Program-made: the position numbers and the translations under genes
Assembly (NCBI GenBank): GCA_937983055.1
Contig: CALJLA010000023.1
Span: 1-62,840, forward strand
Source: an uncultured Pseudomonadota bacterium
GTDB lineage: Bacteria > Pseudomonadota > Gammaproteobacteria > Burkholderiales > Eutrophovitaceae
Direction: 5' to 3'
Length of the DNA: 62,840 nt
Notes under the pieces: model-generated
What the model was told of the DNA's origin: nothing
The model's database searches: none
What the model saw: only the letters and a program-made list of their open reading frames with translations
Shown: positions 15,262 through 53,640 of the stretch, piece after piece
Layout of the letters: every line of letters starts with the position of its first letter
How positions within the stretch are numbered: position 1 is the stretch's first letter

Positions 15262-16482
15262 TCAGTTCTGATACTCGTACCAGGGATCGATTTCATACCG
15301 AATCTCGACGCCTTCTTTCCACTGAAGGTCCGGACTGTTGGTCAGCTTTCTCCAGTATCCGATGGAGTCGAGGATCCTGATCTCGAAAATCCTCCAGTCC
15401 TCGCACTCGTCGATTCCGACGCCCAAACCCGCGTAGTAATCGGCCATAGCTTGGGCCAGAGGCGGGTCGATGCTGGGGTCGGCACCGGGCGTTGTGTCCA
15501 TATCGACCGCGCCTACTTGCTGGTAGATGAGGTCGACCCCCGTCAACTCTTGGCCCGTGCCGTTGTTGGTAACAACACACGGATCGCCGCCCTGGCTGTA
15601 GCTTAAGGTGTAGATCGTCGGCGGGAAAAGCCCGGTAGTGATCTTCGTCCGTTCGGCCGAACTCGTCGAGGTCGCGGGCCCGATCTCGATCTCGACCGTT
15701 GCCGTCCCAGCGTCGTAGACGACCTCGGCATCGCCCGACAGGCAGTCTCCGTCATGGTCAAGGCAGGGCGCGTCTAAGGTGAATTTGCTATAGGCATCGG
15801 CCAGCAGGCGAATTGCCAGGGCACCCCCAGCAATCTTTGCGTAGGTGAACCCGTGCTGGTCGTCGATCAAGAAGTAGACGTCGGCGATGTTGCAGCTGTC
15901 CAGGTGGCCGTTCGGAAGCTGCTCGTCCGGACACTGCTCCTTATTCGCAAGGTCGATCGTTACGCCGTAGCGCTCCGTCGCCTGGTTGTAAGTAAAGAAG
16001 TCGGTGGCCTCGGGATCCGACCACTCGGTCACCGGCAGCGACGGATCATTGCAGATGCGACGCGTGACCGAGCTCTCCGGCAAGATCGGAAGGTTCCAGC
16101 ACCAGCCAGTACCACACGGCGGCACGCCCTCGGGGACCGACGCACAGGGATCGAGACCGTCCGGCGACGGATCGTGTCCGTAATCGGGAAAGGGCGGCAG
16201 CGGCGGCGGGCCTCCGAGCGTTAGATAGCTGAATACCCACGTCGCGTCGCTGAGGTCAATCTGCTGATCGTCGTTTGCGTCCGATGCATCGCAAGATGTC
16301 GGGGTGCTTGGGCCTCCGGTCAGGTAGTCGATTATCGACTGTCCGTCGCTGATATCGACCACCCCGCTGCCATTTGCATCTCCACGTATAAAGCTGCTTT
16401 CGATCCGAAGGTCGCAATCGGAAACGGACTGGGCCCTCAGAAGCGAAGCGCTCAGGAAGAAAATCACGATCAATCGACGCAT
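15262..16482 (-). CDS. Secreted protein with a dockerin/EF-hand-like domain of planctomycete type
   Basis: Signal peptide MRRLIVIFFLSASLLRA after AAGGAGG, then FIRGDANGSGVVDISD...DASDANDDQQIDLSDA...GGPPPLPPFP...GHDPSPDGL. Confidence 0.8.
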   Translation of the reverse strand: MRRLIVIFFLSASLLRAQSVSDCDLRIESSFIRGDANGSGVVDISDGQSIIDYLTGGPSTPTSCDASDANDDQQIDLSDATWVFSYLTLGGPPPLPPFPDYGHDPSPDGLDPCASVPEGVPPCGTGWCWNLPILPESSVTRRICNDPSLPVTEWSDPEATDFFTYNQATERYGVTIDLANKEQCPDEQLPNGHLDSCNIADVYFLIDDQHGFTYAKIAGGALAIRLLADAYSKFTLDAPCLDHDGDCLSGDAEVVYDAGTATVEIEIGPATSTSSAERTKITTGLFPPTIYTLSYSQGGDPCVVTNNGTGQELTGVDLIYQQVGAVDMDTTPGADPSIDPPLAQAMADYYAGLGVGIDECEDWRIFEIRILDSIGYWRKLTNSPDLQWKEGVEIRYEIDPWYEYQN

Positions 16483-16501
16483 CGTACCTCCTTGAAATAA
16501 T

Positions 16502-16614
16502 GGGAGGAGGGCAAAGGGGATCTCCCCTCCTCCCGACGGGAGAGCCCGAGACCTTCCCGGGCGTCTCTGCGCAAACAAATTAAATGGGGAGGAGGCGGTT
16601 GGGACCCCCTCCCC
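16502..16614 (-). terminator. Two related GC-rich hairpins between sak and the dockerin gene (terminator/attenuator-like)
   Basis: GGGAGGAGGG/CCCTCCTCCC (16502-16534) and GGGGAGG/CCTCCCC (16586-16614), each followed by an A/T tract on the minus strand. Confidence 0.5.
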
Positions 16615-19848: not shown

Positions 19849-22679
19849 GAGCGATTCCCCTCGACACCTTGTTGGCCATGATCGCCTTTGATCCGCGGCT
19901 ATCCGACGCTGAAGTGGAGAAGCTGCTTCAGGAGGGCTGCCGGCGAATCAGCAAGGACAACGTTATCTGTGACTCGGATGCAAAGAGGTCGGTTCAATGC
20001 AACAGGAGTTCTTCATGTCGAGAGGCGTCGGGGGAAAATTCCACGCCTGCTATGAGAGCGGAAAGGGGTCCGACGTGCGACTCGTCACCTTCTGCGGAGT
20101 AAAGGTCAAGAACCCGACCTTTCGTCGCCAGCCCTTTGATTACTGCACATGCAATGAGTGCCGAGCCAAGATCGCGCGACATGTGGAGGCGGGAGACAAT
20201 GACAGCTGAATTCACACCGGCCTGGTTGTCCGCGCTGGAGGGCTTCGTTGAAAGTGGCAGGCCGCACAAGCATTTGCAGGGGCACGTCAAGTCGGCGATC
20301 GGCTTCATTCGATCGCTCCAGCGGAAGGTGAGTGAGCTGGAAGAAGTTGGCGCTGGAGTAATTCACAAAGAGTTGAGGATTGGGTTGATTCGCCAGGTTC
20401 TTCACTTGGCTTTTTTATGGGTCGGTGGCTGGCGGGAGATGGTGGCAGAGCTTGAGAACTACTGCAGCGAGCCCGTGCGCTTGAAAGCAATGACCGCGGT
20501 GCTCGACCAGATGGACGAGTGGAAAAAAACGGCGCAGGCGGCTCTTGAGAGGGAGGCGCCATGACCAAGAAAGACCCGGCTGACACCACCAAGGCCCTGG
20601 AGTCCTTGCGCCTTATTCTCAATGAGGCCGAATTCATTGAAGGCGAGGTGCTCCTTTCTTCAGACAGGTGGATCGAGATGAGCAAGATCATTCACATCAT
20701 AGAAGACGACGTGCATGGATGCCGCCGCTTCTGGGAGTCAAGAGGGGCTACAGATGGACTCAAAAACTGAAGCGGAGTTCCACGTCTGTCGTGCGCTTGC
20801 AGAGAAGCTGGAGCGGAAACCGGTGTGGGAGATGGGCCATCCAGTTGAATGGGATTATTCCGGGAAGTGGCACATTTCCATGGGAGGGCTTTATCGCTGC
20901 CGCACGTTTTCATTCGAAAATATCAGCGGCACGACAATAGTCCACCCGATCGGCGGGAAGCGCCGCGACTTCTTCCACGACCCGGCAGCCGCGACGGCTC
21001 TCATGCAAGCTGTAACTCGCCGACCTGAAGTCTGGTCGATCACGCTCGACATCGGAGAGTACGGCGCAGAGGCCGGAGTGCAGGTTGAGGCAGACGGCAT
21101 GCCAGATACCTGCGAAGGTATCGGCGAGGGGTCTGAGTGGATGGTCGCCGTCACCCTTGCCATCGCGAAGTTTCTTGAAATCGACACGAGCGGCTGTGAG
21201 GAGGCAAGCTAATGGGATGGGCCCGTGGCGAAGAGATATTCCATGAGGTCTTAGACCTGTTTCGCCCGTTCTTCGACGACCTCCTCGAAGAGGAGGAGGA
21301 CGAGCTCGTAGCGAAACTCGTCGAGATTTTCGAGCGGCGAGATGCGGACACGATCTTTGACTCCGTGCAGCCGGATCAGAGCGATCCTCTGTGGCGAGTC
21401 TTTCAGGGCCTGTATCCGGAAGAGGCGAGGGAGCTGCTCAAGAGATGAGTGGCCTCGTTTTATTCGGCCTGATCGTGGGCCTTGCGGCTTTTCTTCACTT
21501 GTCGTTGTCAAGCACTATCGGTAGACCGTGCGAGAGGTGTGGGGCGACAACGGATCAAACCCCGATCGGGGATGCTTGCCCTTTCTGCGACAAGGAGTTT
21601 CATCGCTCATGGTTTCGATAGAGTGGATGCTCATCCCAATGGGAGTCTGGGCCTCTGTCGCCTTATGGTTCCCCTTGCTTGAATCAATACGATGGGGAGG
21701 CGGCGAGTACTATCTCGAAGAGGAGGGGCGCTGGGAGTACGAGTTTTTCTTCGGACCTTACGACAAAGGAGGGATTCCGGATCATGGGCGCAGAGAGCTT
21801 GGTTCCGAGAATTCGCGCGACGGCCGGCAGTCTTCGCACGCTCCAGATGACGGGTTACGCCGATGCTTTGGACGGCATAGCCGATGAAATAGCAGACCTT
21901 GAAATCTTCGTGTCTCCAGAGCGAATGCATGCCGCAACCGAGCTGGAGAAGATCCAGGTGATTTGTGACGACGCCGGCATTCCTGACGGTGGCGCGGCGG
22001 AGTCTACGCGAGTTAAAGCGCTTTGCGCTCGTGCTCAGGGCTTGGAGGGTTGGGCTGAGGGGGCCAAAAAGTTTCTTGGGGAGATTGCTACGAGCGATTG
22101 GGGGTGTCTCGATGAGAGAGAGCCTCCGGTATACACGCCCTGTCATTGCGATACGTGTGCAGCAAGGAGGCTAATCGAAGATCTTGCCGAGATAGAGTTG
22201 TCGAAAGAAGAAGATGCTTCCTGAGTACGAAGAGTCCCCGCGCATAGTGTACGGCGGCGCTGTCTTCGTGCGCGTTTGTCCTAAGTGCGGGCGTTTCGTC
22301 TCAGCAGACGAGACCGTGCGCATCTACGAGGAGAGTCCGGCTGTGCGTGAGGAGCCGAATGCGACATGTGGAAAGCACGGAAGAGTGCAGATGCCCTTTG
22401 AGGGCTTTCTTGAATAGGAGGTGAGGGATGATCGGGAAGCGCTGTTCACACTGCAAAGAAGTGATGCCTCGGGTCTCGGTCGAGAAGCTTCGCAAGCTGT
22501 CGGCGATGACACTGGGCACTCGCTACGCGCATCTCCCCTTTTGCTCGCGCAAGTGCCTGTCCGATTTCGTGGCCGATAACCTGTACGACGAGGAGGTGGA
22601 TGACTGTATGCAGAGGGCCGCGGGTCTTTGGGCGAATTCTTCTGATCGGATAGGCGAGGTTCCGAGGCGGGGGCGATAG
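19845..22679 (+). other. Cluster of small hypothetical genes, several with Zn-finger-like Cys pairs
   Basis: Coupled ORFs, e.g. 20561-20770, ~20754-21212, 21212-21448, ~21784-22224, 22214-22417, 22428-22679. Confidence 0.6.
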
Positions 22680-22691
22680 ATCTCCTTAGAG

Positions 22692-23085
22692 CCATGCGAT
22701 CCGACCTGAAAGGATGCGAGCCGAAACCAAGCGAAACCAGTCGAAACGACACGATTGGAAGCGAGACGAGACGATACGATCCGCTCAATTGGAGATGAAA
22801 CGATACGAGAGGAGACGAGAGGATCCGAATCGACACGATATCGATGCGACCCGAAGCCATCCGATGCGAGCCGAATTGAGTCGAAACGACGCGATACGAG
22901 AGGATTCGCTCAAGCCGAAACGACTTGACACGAAGCGATAGGACATGAGACGAGACGATTCGCTCAAGACGAAAATGACGCGATGCGACACGATGCGACA
23001 CGAAGCGACTCGAGGCGAAACGAAGCGACACGAAGCGAAACGATAGGAGGCGACACGACACGATTGGAAGCTAGACGAGACGAAG
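22692..23085 (+). repeat. CGA-NN pentamer array 1 (candidate guide-like ncRNA)
   Basis: About 73 units of (C/T/G)GA-NN with an invariant A, in segments of 18/23/9/23 units separated by CGCTCAA at 22782, 22907 and 22961. Intergenic. Confidence 0.9.
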
Positions 23086-23123
23086 CGCCTTGATTAACTA
23101 AACACGCTCTAAGGAGAACGAGC

Positions 23124-23729
23124 ATGTACCAGCCCCTTTACGTTCATATTCGAGGAATTGCCCCGCAGCTGCAGAACAATGGCCAGCGCAAGGATCCGCT
23201 CAATCGCTGGGCCAAGGCGATAGCGAGGATATCGAAGAAGAGGACGAAGACCGATGACGATCACATGGCGATGAGGGAGGCCGAATTCAAGGGTTCCCTC
23301 TACTGTCGTGACGATAGGGAGGGGAGAGTCGTCTACTGGCCAGCGGACAACATCCACGCCTGCATCAAGACTGCGGCGAAGATGAAAAAGCAGGGGAAGG
23401 TTGTCGATACGGCGGTGGTCGTCGGCCCTAACGGTGGCCAGCTGATTTACGACGGACCCAGGACTCGTGACGAGCTTTGGGAGGCCGGTGACTCTTTCCG
23501 TCTGCTCAAGCCGACAAAGCGCGGCGTTATGAGCTGCCGTCCCTGTTTCCATGAGTGGGAGGTAAAATTCAGCCTGCACTACCTCGAAACGCTTCTGGGT
23601 AAAGAAGACATCGTGCAGCTGATCAAGGACGCGGGGGCCTTTATCGGCCTGAGCGACTGGCCGCGAAGGTACGGCCTTTTCAAGATCGAAGATATTCAGC
23701 ACAAGGAGGTAGAGATCGATGTCGAGTGA
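23124..23729 (+). CDS. Stand-alone Cas7/RAMP-superfamily-like RNA-binding protein
   Basis: N-terminal strand VHIRGIAPQL, YWPADNIHACIKTAAK (like the RAMP iPgssiKGa motif), RPCFHEWEVKF, and C-terminal Gly-rich loop GAFIGLSDWPRRYGLFKI. AAGGAG SD. Confidence 0.75.
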   Translation: MYQPLYVHIRGIAPQLQNNGQRKDPLNRWAKAIARISKKRTKTDDDHMAMREAEFKGSLYCRDDREGRVVYWPADNIHACIKTAAKMKKQGKVVDTAVVVGPNGGQLIYDGPRTRDELWEAGDSFRLLKPTKRGVMSCRPCFHEWEVKFSLHYLETLLGKEDIVQLIKDAGAFIGLSDWPRRYGLFKIEDIQHKEVEIDVE

Positions 23730-24153
23730 GACGAGGGAACTGGCAACGACGATCGCGGGCGGCTGTGGGCCAGGGGACATGATCTCGGCTGAGAAGATCG
23801 AGAAGGCCACGGGCGTCAAGCGCGAGGAGGCGAGGTACGCCTTGGAGGTTCTCAAGCTTCAGAGCGCGATCGAAGCCATCGTCTCCGAGTCGGTCGGCCG
23901 AGAGGTGTTGACGCGCCAGGTCAAGGGGGCGATCCAGATTCTCACCCCGATACAGGCAGCGGACTACACGCTTGATGGACAGAGGAGGGCGCTCGACCTG
24001 GCGCGTCGGCGCCATGTCCAGTTTACGGCCTGTGTGCGCCCTGACGATTTCGAGTCGTCGTCGGAGAGGGCCGAATACTACGATCGCCAGGCAAAGTTTG
24101 CCCGCATTCTTCTGCACGCGGAGAAGCGCAGTCTTGGCGTCGAGGACGATTGA
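23719..24153 (+). CDS. Accessory protein of the RAMP/pentamer-array locus, function unknown
   Basis: 144 aa, overlaps the RAMP gene stop and has an AAGGAGG SD. Its TGA stop is the first unit of array 2. Confidence 0.75.
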   Translation: MSSETRELATTIAGGCGPGDMISAEKIEKATGVKREEARYALEVLKLQSAIEAIVSESVGREVLTRQVKGAIQILTPIQAADYTLDGQRRALDLARRRHVQFTACVRPDDFESSSERAEYYDRQAKFARILLHAEKRSLGVEDD

Positions 24154-24555
24154 GTCGAGCCGATACGAGCCGAAACGAAATGAGCCGAGACGATACGAGA
24201 CGACGCTAGGCGAGGCGAAGCGAAACGAACCGCTCAAGACGATCTGACCCGAGCCGAAACGACGCGATGCGAAACGATGCGCTCAAAAAGATCCGAAACG
24301 AAACGAGTCGACACGAAGCGACACGACACGAAGCGACACGAAGCGACACGAATCGAGACGATTCGCTCAAGCTGATTCGAGACGATTCGCTCAAGCTGAT
24401 TCGAGACGATTCGAAACGACACGAGCCGAGCCGATTCGAGACGATGCGAGGCGAGTCGACACGATGCGAGACGAAGCGAGACGATGCGACACGATGCGCT
24501 CAAGACGATACGATCCGATACGAGCTGAGACGACGCGAGACGAAACGAGCCGATT
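24151..24555 (+). repeat. CGA-NN pentamer array 2 (candidate guide-like ncRNA)
   Basis: About 72 units in segments of 16/8/15/3/20/10 separated by CGCTCAA at 24231, 24280, 24364, 24388 and 24497. Includes an exact 24-bp tandem duplication at 24353-24413. Confidence 0.9.
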
Positions 24556-25061
24556 GTTTCCGGCGAAGAATTGCGACAAAGGGCTTGACGAGCACCGCGA
24601 TAGAGGGAATGCTGCTGAGGTCGCCCAGGGCCCCAAAACAGAGTCTGAACAGCCCGCGCAAGGTCTTGGGCGATTTCGTGCGGGCTGCTTCTATGCCTCG
24701 AGCTCGGTCGCAGCAATCGCCCGAGTCTCGTAGAATCGGTGGTTTCGGTGGTACCGGATTCCGCATAGCCATGACGTAAACCTTGGATAGGTCGCTGGTT
24801 CGGGGGAGTGCCCACTCTGGACCAGACAGCGGGGGGTCGGAACTCGCTGCGGCGCTGGAGACGGCGTCGGACCGAACGGAGCTCGCGTGCTCAACCCGCC
24901 CGAGCCTTCCGAGGCCAGTCGTACTCGAGGCATTTCGATCGCTGGGACCTGCGAGAGAACCCCAGCTGGAGCAACCGGACCGGAGGGGACGGAGGGCACC
25001 GGTTCTGCCTCAAGGAAAATCAGCGCGAGCGAAGCGAGCACCTTTTCAGGGAGTGAAGAGA

Positions 25062-52083: not shown

Positions 52084-53640
52084 GTGGCAGAAATCTTTGT
52101 CGACGCACCGAGCACTGAAGATCACGAGGCAGCGCTCGCGCGTATCGCCGCGATTGAGGCAACTGACGGAGGCCACGAGGCGCGAATGGACGCGCTCGAG
52201 GCGCGTATCGCTGCGCTCGAAGCAGTTCCCCCACCACCGCCCACCCCTTCTCCACCACCGAGCACGGGACGAGGATTCACGGATCTATCGACGCTGCCAA
52301 AGGCGAAGGTCTTCTACGTCTCGCCAACAGGTGATGACTCGAACGATGGCGAAAGTGAGGGCTCTCCATTCCGAACGCTTCAGAGAGCCTACAACTCAGT
52401 TCGCTCGGGAAGCCCAGACTGGATCCTGCTTCAGGGAGGCGGAGCTTATCAGGGGCCTCTTGCGAGCAAGTGGGAGAAGAGCGGCCAGGATGCGAACGCG
52501 CGGATCGTGGTCGCCAGCTACGGCCAAGAATCGGCACCGCGTCCGATCATCGACCCGGGCGCGGCCATGGGCTGCTTCTTCGCCGTTCAAGATGGCGGGT
52601 TCGTCAGCCTTTACTCGCTCGATTTCTACAACCGAGCTCGAGATCCCTCGAGCCCTGGATATGACCCAGCGGCGACGGGGTCCGACGGGATTCGATTCTA
52701 TGCGGGGCCGCACGACATCCGCTTAGAGGATGTGCGCGTCCGATTCTTCTCCACCGGCATCAGCGGCGAGATCGATCGGCATACGGGCAATGCCCCACGA
52801 AACATTGAGATCTTTCGCTGCACAGTTGACCACAACTACCCGCGAGGATCCCACGGGCAGGGACTCTTCTTCACCGGCGTTACCGGCATCACGATCGATG
52901 AGTGCGTGATCGACTACAACGGCTGGAACGCTGAGTCTGGTGCGGCTCGAACCATCTTCAATCACAACGCATACATCAACGGCTGCCATGACGTGGTCGT
53001 GCGTGACTGCTGGTCGACACGTGGGAGTTCAATGTCATGGAAGCTGAAGGCGAACACTCCGCGAGCGGCGATCGGCGGCCTCTACACGGGCAATGTCTGC
53101 TCCGAATCTGCGATCGGGTTCTCGATGGGAGGAAACATCGAGGCCTCGGACATCGGCTTCGAGGATCAGAGGTGTAACGACAACGTATTCGTCGACATGT
53201 GGGGCAATCCTCCGGCGCAGCCGGAGAAGAGGGGCCTCGGCATCAAGTCGATTCGCAACTCTGAGTTCCTCAGGAACCTCTTCCTGCATTCGCCCACCGA
53301 CTACGGAAACAAGTCGGCAATTTGGGTGCTGGACATGCCGATCGAATCGACTCGAGTCGCCGACAACCTGGCCTACGCCTGGCAGACTAACGGACCGGTC
53401 TACCGCATCGATGCTCCCGCTGGCGTTGATGCGCAGGGCAATGTCGAGGTGACAGACCCCTCTCAGGTGGTTTATGCGCAGAGAACGATGAAGACTTTCG
53501 CGGCCTCGGTCGGAGCCGGGCCCGATCTTGCGAGCCTGATGGCAGTTGCTGTCGAGAACCGAAAAGGCGCATGGAATAGCGATGTGACGGCGAAAGCCGC
53601 CAGCGTCTACTTCCGAGAAGGTTTCAAGCTGGTGAACTAA
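52084..53640 (+). CDS. Right-handed beta-helix protein, paralog 2, with N-terminal coiled coil
   Basis: FYVSPTGDDSNDG...PFRTL...GSPDWILL, NHNAY; LEARIAALE heptads and a Pro linker. Confidence 0.8.
   Translation: MAEIFVDAPSTEDHEAALARIAAIEATDGGHEARMDALEARIAALEAVPPPPPTPSPPPSTGRGFTDLSTLPKAKVFYVSPTGDDSNDGESEGSPFRTLQRAYNSVRSGSPDWILLQGGGAYQGPLASKWEKSGQDANARIVVASYGQESAPRPIIDPGAAMGCFFAVQDGGFVSLYSLDFYNRARDPSSPGYDPAATGSDGIRFYAGPHDIRLEDVRVRFFSTGISGEIDRHTGNAPRNIEIFRCTVDHNYPRGSHGQGLFFTGVTGITIDECVIDYNGWNAESGAARTIFNHNAYINGCHDVVVRDCWSTRGSSMSWKLKANTPRAAIGGLYTGNVCSESAIGFSMGGNIEASDIGFEDQRCNDNVFVDMWGNPPAQPEKRGLGIKSIRNSEFLRNLFLHSPTDYGNKSAIWVLDMPIESTRVADNLAYAWQTNGPVYRIDAPAGVDAQGNVEVTDPSQVVYAQRTMKTFAASVGAGPDLASLMAVAVENRKGAWNSDVTAKAASVYFREGFKLVN

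Follow-up and report, generated by a model that had tools for sequence, protein, structure and literature searches.

Genes and context of the locus

The window, i.e. the whole stretch of 62,840 nucleotides that was analysed (contig CALJLA010000023.1), is the entire contig of a temperate phage, with genes for terminase, capsid, portal, tail spike and integrase. It carries a vipr gene followed by a vap1-like accessory gene, with an array of CGA-NN pentamers on either side (Table 1). The Vipr protein matches the SUSP1 Vipr 36pp_D over residues 5-196 (phmmer, E 3.8e-26), and its structure model (pLDDT 85) has subunits of Csm/Cmr complexes as Foldseek matches. The second gene product is homologous to that of the gene that follows vipr in Felixounavirus AYO145A (HHalign 83.5%, E 8e-6); an Atlas look-up for vap gave weak leads only. 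The stop codon TGA of this gene is at the same time the first trinucleotide of array 2, and a vap gene was found at 5/5 homologous loci. The same layout, with a vap1-like second gene and arrays on both sides, is seen in the Type II VIPR systems of SUSP1/Felixounavirus and of a P. fulva prophage. These homologies and the unit sequence identify a CGA-core VIPR locus in the window, with two arrays flanking a vipr-vap operon.

Table 1. Coordinates of the genes, arrays and register breaks of the locus
Feature	Position	Strand	Basis or detail
vrRNA array 1 (CGA-NN pentamers)	22692..23090	+	four segments, 18/24/10/24 units
Junction 1, CGCT-CAA, -1 shift	22782..22788	+	unit parse
6-nt unit CGATAT, +1 break without motif	22836..22841	+	unit parse, Logan contigs
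Junction 2 (CGCTCAA)	22907..22913	+	unit parse
Junction 3 (CGCTCAA)	22961..22967	+	unit parse
6-nt unit CGAAAA, +1 break without motif	22970..22975	+	unit parse, Logan contigs
3' end of array 1, pentamer CGC-CT, resembling a junction	23086..23090	+	
vipr, 201-aa RAMP-fold protein	23124..23729	+	phmmer, predicted structure
vap1-like accessory gene, 144 aa	23719..24153	+	HHalign
vrRNA array 2 (CGA-NN pentamers)	24151..24555	+	six segments, 16/9/16/4/21/11 units
Junction 4 (CGCTCAA)	24231..24237	+	unit parse
Junction 5 (CGCTCAA)	24280..24286	+	unit parse
Junctions 6 (24364) and 7 (24388)	inside 24-nt tandem duplication 24353..24413	+	
Junction 8 (CGCTCAA)	24497..24503	+	unit parse

The canonical GGY core of VIPR units is missing and is replaced by CGA. 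The VIPR definition admits related consensus sequences, including the non-canonical NNNNG class (Yoon et al., 10.64898/2026.04.26.720920), and the cores GAC/NN, CAC/NN, WGT/NN and TGH/NN have been described (10.64898/2026.10.21.760802); these non-canonical units likewise combine a fixed non-GGY trinucleotide with NN beside a Vipr fold. The text on non-GGY cores names neither CGA/NN nor register shifts, which its figures may show (10.64898/2026.10.21.760802). In SUSP1 Vipr, residues R138 and W178 bind G2, according to the text of 10.64898/2026.04.26.720927. The equivalents of R138, W178, K82 and G87 are retained in the window protein, and the residues of the G1 and Y3 pockets are altered (H17 to N, and the DWRP motif to DWPR). 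Of the 20 nearest proteins, 15 have WPR in place of WRP. A change of R179 to P as a requirement for the CGA core was rejected: locus L006 has CGA arrays yet retains WRP, so the swap is not needed for this core.

In a FastTree phylogeny of 71 sequences (14 fragments excluded), the six CGA Vipr proteins form one clade (support 0.998), nested in the group that holds Felixounavirus Vipr (support 0.993), to which the window protein is about 37% identical. Two further CGA-type loci are placed elsewhere in the tree. This Vipr subfamily was found neither in GTDB contigs nor in 60 kin genomes, and 4 of the 123 loci with CGA runs in the DNA examined have a Vipr match.

The window is a composition outlier within its bin, which makes the host assignment uncertain, as the host may be an organism other than that of the bin. 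The last 100 bases of the contig (62741-62840) agree with positions 49-148 at 94 bases, the final 54 without mismatch, which suggests either a circular genome that is nearly complete or a terminal repeat that has diverged. A phage ORF on the minus strand (15262-16578) encodes a dockerin type I domain (Pfam E 4e-7), with no second copy in the bin. Dockerin type I domains are typical of Planctomycetota, and this one is a possible hint at a Planctomycetota host. Two short runs of similar units lie elsewhere. Four TCG-NN units (CGA-NN on the minus strand) at 53342-53361 of the window, inside a long ORF, are probably due to chance, and six GGY-NN units near 16283 (plus strand) of bin contig G000:C16, a contig without a Vipr match, are possibly a solo vrRNA or again chance.

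Anatomy of the arrays and their junctions

The CGA core is present in 113 of the 146 window units scored, and all 16 NN combinations occur; the third base, A3, is invariant in all 146, which lie outside the 4-nt junction units. The sequence-only reading had reported eight exact copies of CGCTCAA in the arrays, each consisting of a 4-nt CGCT unit and a CAA-NN unit that together break the 5-nt register by one base. All eight were found in place, the unit parse gave this -1 shift at 8/8, and all eight -1 shifts of the window coincide with the motif. At these junctions, A3 is lost from the first unit and G2 from the second, and the unit before the junction ends in TT in four of the eight cases. 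That array 1 ends in a related CGCCT was likewise borne out; the 3' end of array 2 is GTT-TC, and the motif is absent there.

The motif is strongly enriched in the arrays, with 8 copies in 804 nt of array versus 0.13 expected from the remaining plus strand of the window, which has 10 copies outside the arrays (Poisson P ~2e-12). Across the window, on both strands, the 23 copies represent a modest excess over a shuffle mean of 14.85. A ninth copy in this region lies at 23197, within the vipr ORF.

Segment counts of 18/23/9/23 and 16/8/15/3/20/10 units, as originally proposed, hold if the CAA unit is left out; with this unit included they become those of Table 1. Ten segments are indeed parsed, irregular in length (20-121 nt, 4-24 units), and the 4-unit one, the shortest, is a product of slippage: it repeats the start of the following segment and lies in an exact 24-nt tandem duplication (2.5 copies) bounded by 13-nt direct repeats. 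As one junction and the 4-unit segment stem from this duplication, seven junctions are independent, and segments of guide size in the window would number about nine, besides one remnant of the duplication. In Logan contigs from one run, possibly the source sample, both 6-nt units are present with identical letters and the duplicated part has doubled depth, which makes assembly errors an unlikely cause of either. Towards their 3' ends (22747-22771 and 23056-23080), segments 1 and 4 have five consecutive NN units in common, with 17 nt exact, a sign of possible copying between guides.

That the repeats might be protein-coding, with the motif as a feature of the reading frame, seems scarcely credible. 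ORFs of 75-245 residues do overlap the arrays on both strands; the period, however, is 5 instead of 3, no frame is kept through the +1 and -1 shifts, and vipr has the same surroundings in all homologues examined.

Junctions in homologous and canonical arrays

Homologous arrays were compared at five distinct loci, L003, L005, L006, L007 and L008 (L004 is the same contig as L003). Punctuation, for which the sequence-only reading had looked to such arrays, is present in two of the five and lacking in three. Locus L003, with a Vipr 70% identical to that of the window, has eight CGC[ACG]-CAA junctions, and L005 (Vipr 56% identical) has four CGCN-CAA junctions, all of them -1 shifts; together these are 12 junctions of the same CGC[ACG]-CAA type. 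Since the fourth base and the flanking NN differ by locus, the conserved element is CGCN-CAA. Loci L006, L007 and L008 have separate tracts without junctions. After 30 of 40 CGA tracts, spaced ones included, comes a CG[C/G/T] pentamer, and its presence after both punctuated and unpunctuated tracts marks it as a feature of the 3' end.

A first junction pattern matched one locus in IMG/VR (L002), read as a chance match; a looser pattern found the L003 record alone in IMG/VR and nothing in GTDB contigs. Outside the CGA clade, L200 carries a staggered CGA-NN array (1238-1600) with CGCR-GTA junctions alongside a Vipr of a distant clade, which suggests from sequence that the CGA core arose more than once. 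At L265 (minus strand, 271-586) a CGA-NN array by a Vipr fragment has a recurring 12-nt linker, CGYT-CGAC-GANC, a layout that is, to judge by its units, between staggered and spaced.

In canonical arrays, -1 junctions proved to be common. An IMG/VR scan for GGY arrays with a -1 shift gave at least 125 loci, at least 81 of them with a Vipr match. Parsing of at least 132 arrays yielded 816 4-nt and 20 6-nt units among the matches listed, a ratio that reflects the choice of the set for its -1 shift. Among these matches the 4-nt units were mainly GGCA (559), GGCG (92) and CGCA (50), and the commonest junction was GGCA-GGY (518/816). Also among the matches listed, the median length of the 672 internal segments is 9 units, two or more junctions occur in 111 of 125 loci, and the locus's own junction 4-mer ends the array in 49 of 102 cases versus 20% of internal units. 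Alteration of both flanking units, as in the window, was seen in GGY loci L020, L048, L096, L071 and L087, the first three being the nearest GGY loci in the tree.

This architecture has been described. The legend of Fig. S18 of Yoon et al. (10.64898/2026.04.26.720920) refers to staggered vrRNA arrays with a 1-nt overlap and to processed vrRNAs; by this legend text, such an array has the same back-to-back tracts, with the end of one overlapping the start of the next by 1 nt and vipr adjacent. In the window there is likewise no spacer or tail between tracts, and 8/8 junctions overlap by 1 nt. The homologous junctions and the GGY scan thus identify CGCTCAA as the form that the published staggered array takes in the CGA clade. 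The staggered canonical arrays have a GGY core and, among the matches listed, mostly GGCA-GGY junctions, whereas the window has a CGA core and CGCN-CAA junctions in which both units are defective. The published text does not give the junction sequence of staggered arrays, which the figures may show (10.64898/2026.04.26.720920), and, as far as that text goes, a CGA core with CGCN-CAA and junction codes that differ by clade are absent from it. Its main text names only the ribozyme and single-vrRNA types as confirmed by sequencing, and the published text we consulted does not treat the maturation of staggered arrays or the origin of new vrRNAs. The vrRNAs of SUSP1 differ from the window segments in being separate, GGY-based and provided with a structured 3' tail, and the ribozyme-interspersed VIPR array has a hammerhead between vrRNAs; none was found in 22400-24900 of the window, and there is no room for one between its tracts.

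We consider neutral decay, i.e. a chance deletion spread by slippage and without function, highly improbable. Slippage and indels have clearly acted here, as the 24-nt duplication and the two +1 insertions demonstrate, and the window has some excess of shared NN words (P 0.03-0.06). Nevertheless, CGCN-CAA is common to loci whose Vipr proteins are 70% and 56% identical to that of the window, the window and L003 arrays have no identical stretch as long as 15 nt in common, and equivalent junctions recur within most canonical loci (the 111 of 125 mentioned above).

Distinctly unlikely, too, is that the junction is mainly a footprint of guide addition or shuffling by recombination or template switching, homogenised within each locus and with a secondary role as boundary. 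Such a process would fit the uniform flanks of the junctions at each locus (the preceding unit ends in AC in 7/8 cases in L003, against the TT of the window), the multiplication of one junction by slippage, and the frequent anchoring of shared runs at segment edges (12 of 18 pairs when runs of at least 5 units within a locus are counted, the anchor being a segment start or end). It accords less well with the junction-like pentamer at the end of single spaced tracts and with the clustering of segment lengths at guide size, and these two features suggest selection on function.

Role of the junctions and possible targets

The proposal that the motif divides a multi-guide precursor into separate guides is well supported by the retention of the junction in two of the five homologous loci and by the frequency of -1 junctions in VIPR, and the junction-like array ends, the anchoring of shared runs at segment edges and the published staggered layout lend it further weight. 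Against separate guides stand the three homologous loci with unpunctuated tracts, the existence of unbroken tracts of 36-43 units, the irregular window segments with their two unmarked +1 breaks, and the origin of one junction by slippage. Unbroken CGA-NN tracts were found in L243 (301-515, 43 units; 1061-1250, 38 units) and L007 (4029-4208, 36 units); all three far exceed the length of 9-16 units described for vrRNAs.

The comparison of the motif with a CRISPR repeat holds as an analogy only. As in CRISPR/Cas6 systems, a conserved element parts variable guides in one precursor, with a RAMP protein adjacent. CRISPR direct repeats, however, are about 23-47 nt long, with spacers of similar length, whereas the window motif is 7 nt long, unstructured and made of altered scaffold units, its position 4 is variable, it is missing from three homologous loci, and the segments vary from 4 to 24 units. 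No cas genes were found among the selected contig ORFs scanned. TIGR-Tas systems differ as well, with an 18-nt period and a Tas protein against the period of 5 and the RAMP protein here. By the features that define CRISPR repeats, CGCTCAA is not one of them but a putative boundary mark.

In SUSP1, according to the text of 10.64898/2026.04.26.720920 and 10.64898/2026.04.26.720927, one Vipr protomer binds each pentamer and the target is paired with 1-nt skips. We propose that the window represents a temperate-phage VIPR locus with back-to-back, tail-less staggered guides. To judge from the gene layout, the plus strand would be transcribed together with vipr-vap. By homology, Vipr would coat the RNA with one protomer per CGA-NN unit, leaving the NN pairs exposed for gapped pairing with DNA. 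At each junction the terminal CGC-TC pentamer of one tract and the first CAA-NN pentamer of the next overlap by one base. As A3 and G2 are lost and the register slips by one, a continuous filament presumably could not cross, and each junction would close one guide at its 3' end and open the following one at its 5' end. The precursor would most likely be cut or trimmed at the junctions into separate guides, and likely targets, from the literature, are competing phages or their vipr genes. That filaments end and restart at the junction, with the precursor cut or trimmed there, has in our estimate a probability of about 0.6.

Alternatively, the junction may be a break in filament register only, with a long, uncut RNA on which several Vipr filaments form independently, each directed at a target of its own. 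Although we regard this as unlikely, the comparative evidence for boundaries would fit it equally well, the two-gene operon has no recognised nuclease, and the junctions lack recognisable processing signals: no conserved hairpin was found at the window junctions and array ends, where folds did not exceed those of shuffled sequences in 13 of 14 stretches, and a search of 22400-24900 against Rfam gave no match at E up to 1 and no ribozyme. On the other hand, the arrays abut the genes and no sigma-70-like promoter was called in 22400-24900, so that the guides would lie in mRNA; moreover, the published legend refers to processed vrRNAs, and ribozymes separate the guides in other VIPR types (10.64898/2026.04.26.720920).

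No target was found for the segments tested from the window, L003 and L005. Ten window and 12 homologue segments were compared with the own genome at skips of 0-2, the long window segments being split at the 6-nt units and the 4-unit remnant excluded, and only background was obtained; the same held for segments against the L003 record and the four other loci. For six segments compared with shuffles, the best scores (25/36 and 29/44) were equal to or one over the shuffled maxima. In IMG/VR, one exact window seed gave 0 matches and one exact L003 seed gave 5 (best 26/36), not taken as a target. Four 11-unit seeds gave 10 matches with 3 mismatches each in 151 kin genomes of the bin, versus 5 for the control, and none of these extended.

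One match of another kind came from a canonical staggered array of a different clade. Segment 1 of L138, which is not a CGA locus, matches the vipr gene of L024 in frame, with the wobble position skipped and agreement at 21 of 24 NN bases. The match sets in with the first unit past one junction and is lost at the final unit ahead of the following junction, and the flanking segments match at 1-3 of 12 bases. Its score is above that of all 158 shuffled rounds for 677 segments and 91 vipr genes, a restriction made post hoc; when all loci are searched, the score of 19 is only just above the 18 and 17 of control skips. Guides against vipr genes are known in the literature, by the text of 10.64898/2026.10.15.759431. 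The L138-L024 pair is a candidate natural target confined between junctions, a single case in support of their role as boundaries. A second match, of L141 to L041 (score 16), was rejected, as it is off the wobble register and equalled by 11 of the 158 shuffled rounds.

A more specific form of cutting at the junction, in which Vipr itself reads CGC-N|CAA and cuts its precursor there by RAMP chemistry as in Cas6/Csm3, with new guides inserted at the same step, appears quite unlikely to us. Under such self-cutting the code would vary by clade together with the Vipr pocket, as GGCA-GGY, CGCA-GGY, GGCG-GTC, GGAC-TTY, CGCN-CAA or CGCR-GTA. In most canonical arrays, register and sequence are hard to separate by mutation, because the junction GGCA-GGY is almost a normal unit. 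The CGA clade, in which two positions as well as the register differ and which has relatives with and without junctions, offers a clean test of cutting versus filament break. The locus also provides a natural multiplex guide cassette together with a Vipr of changed scaffold specificity. If self-processing by Vipr were true, guide maturation and array growth would both be found in a single-RAMP system that is thought to predate CRISPR.
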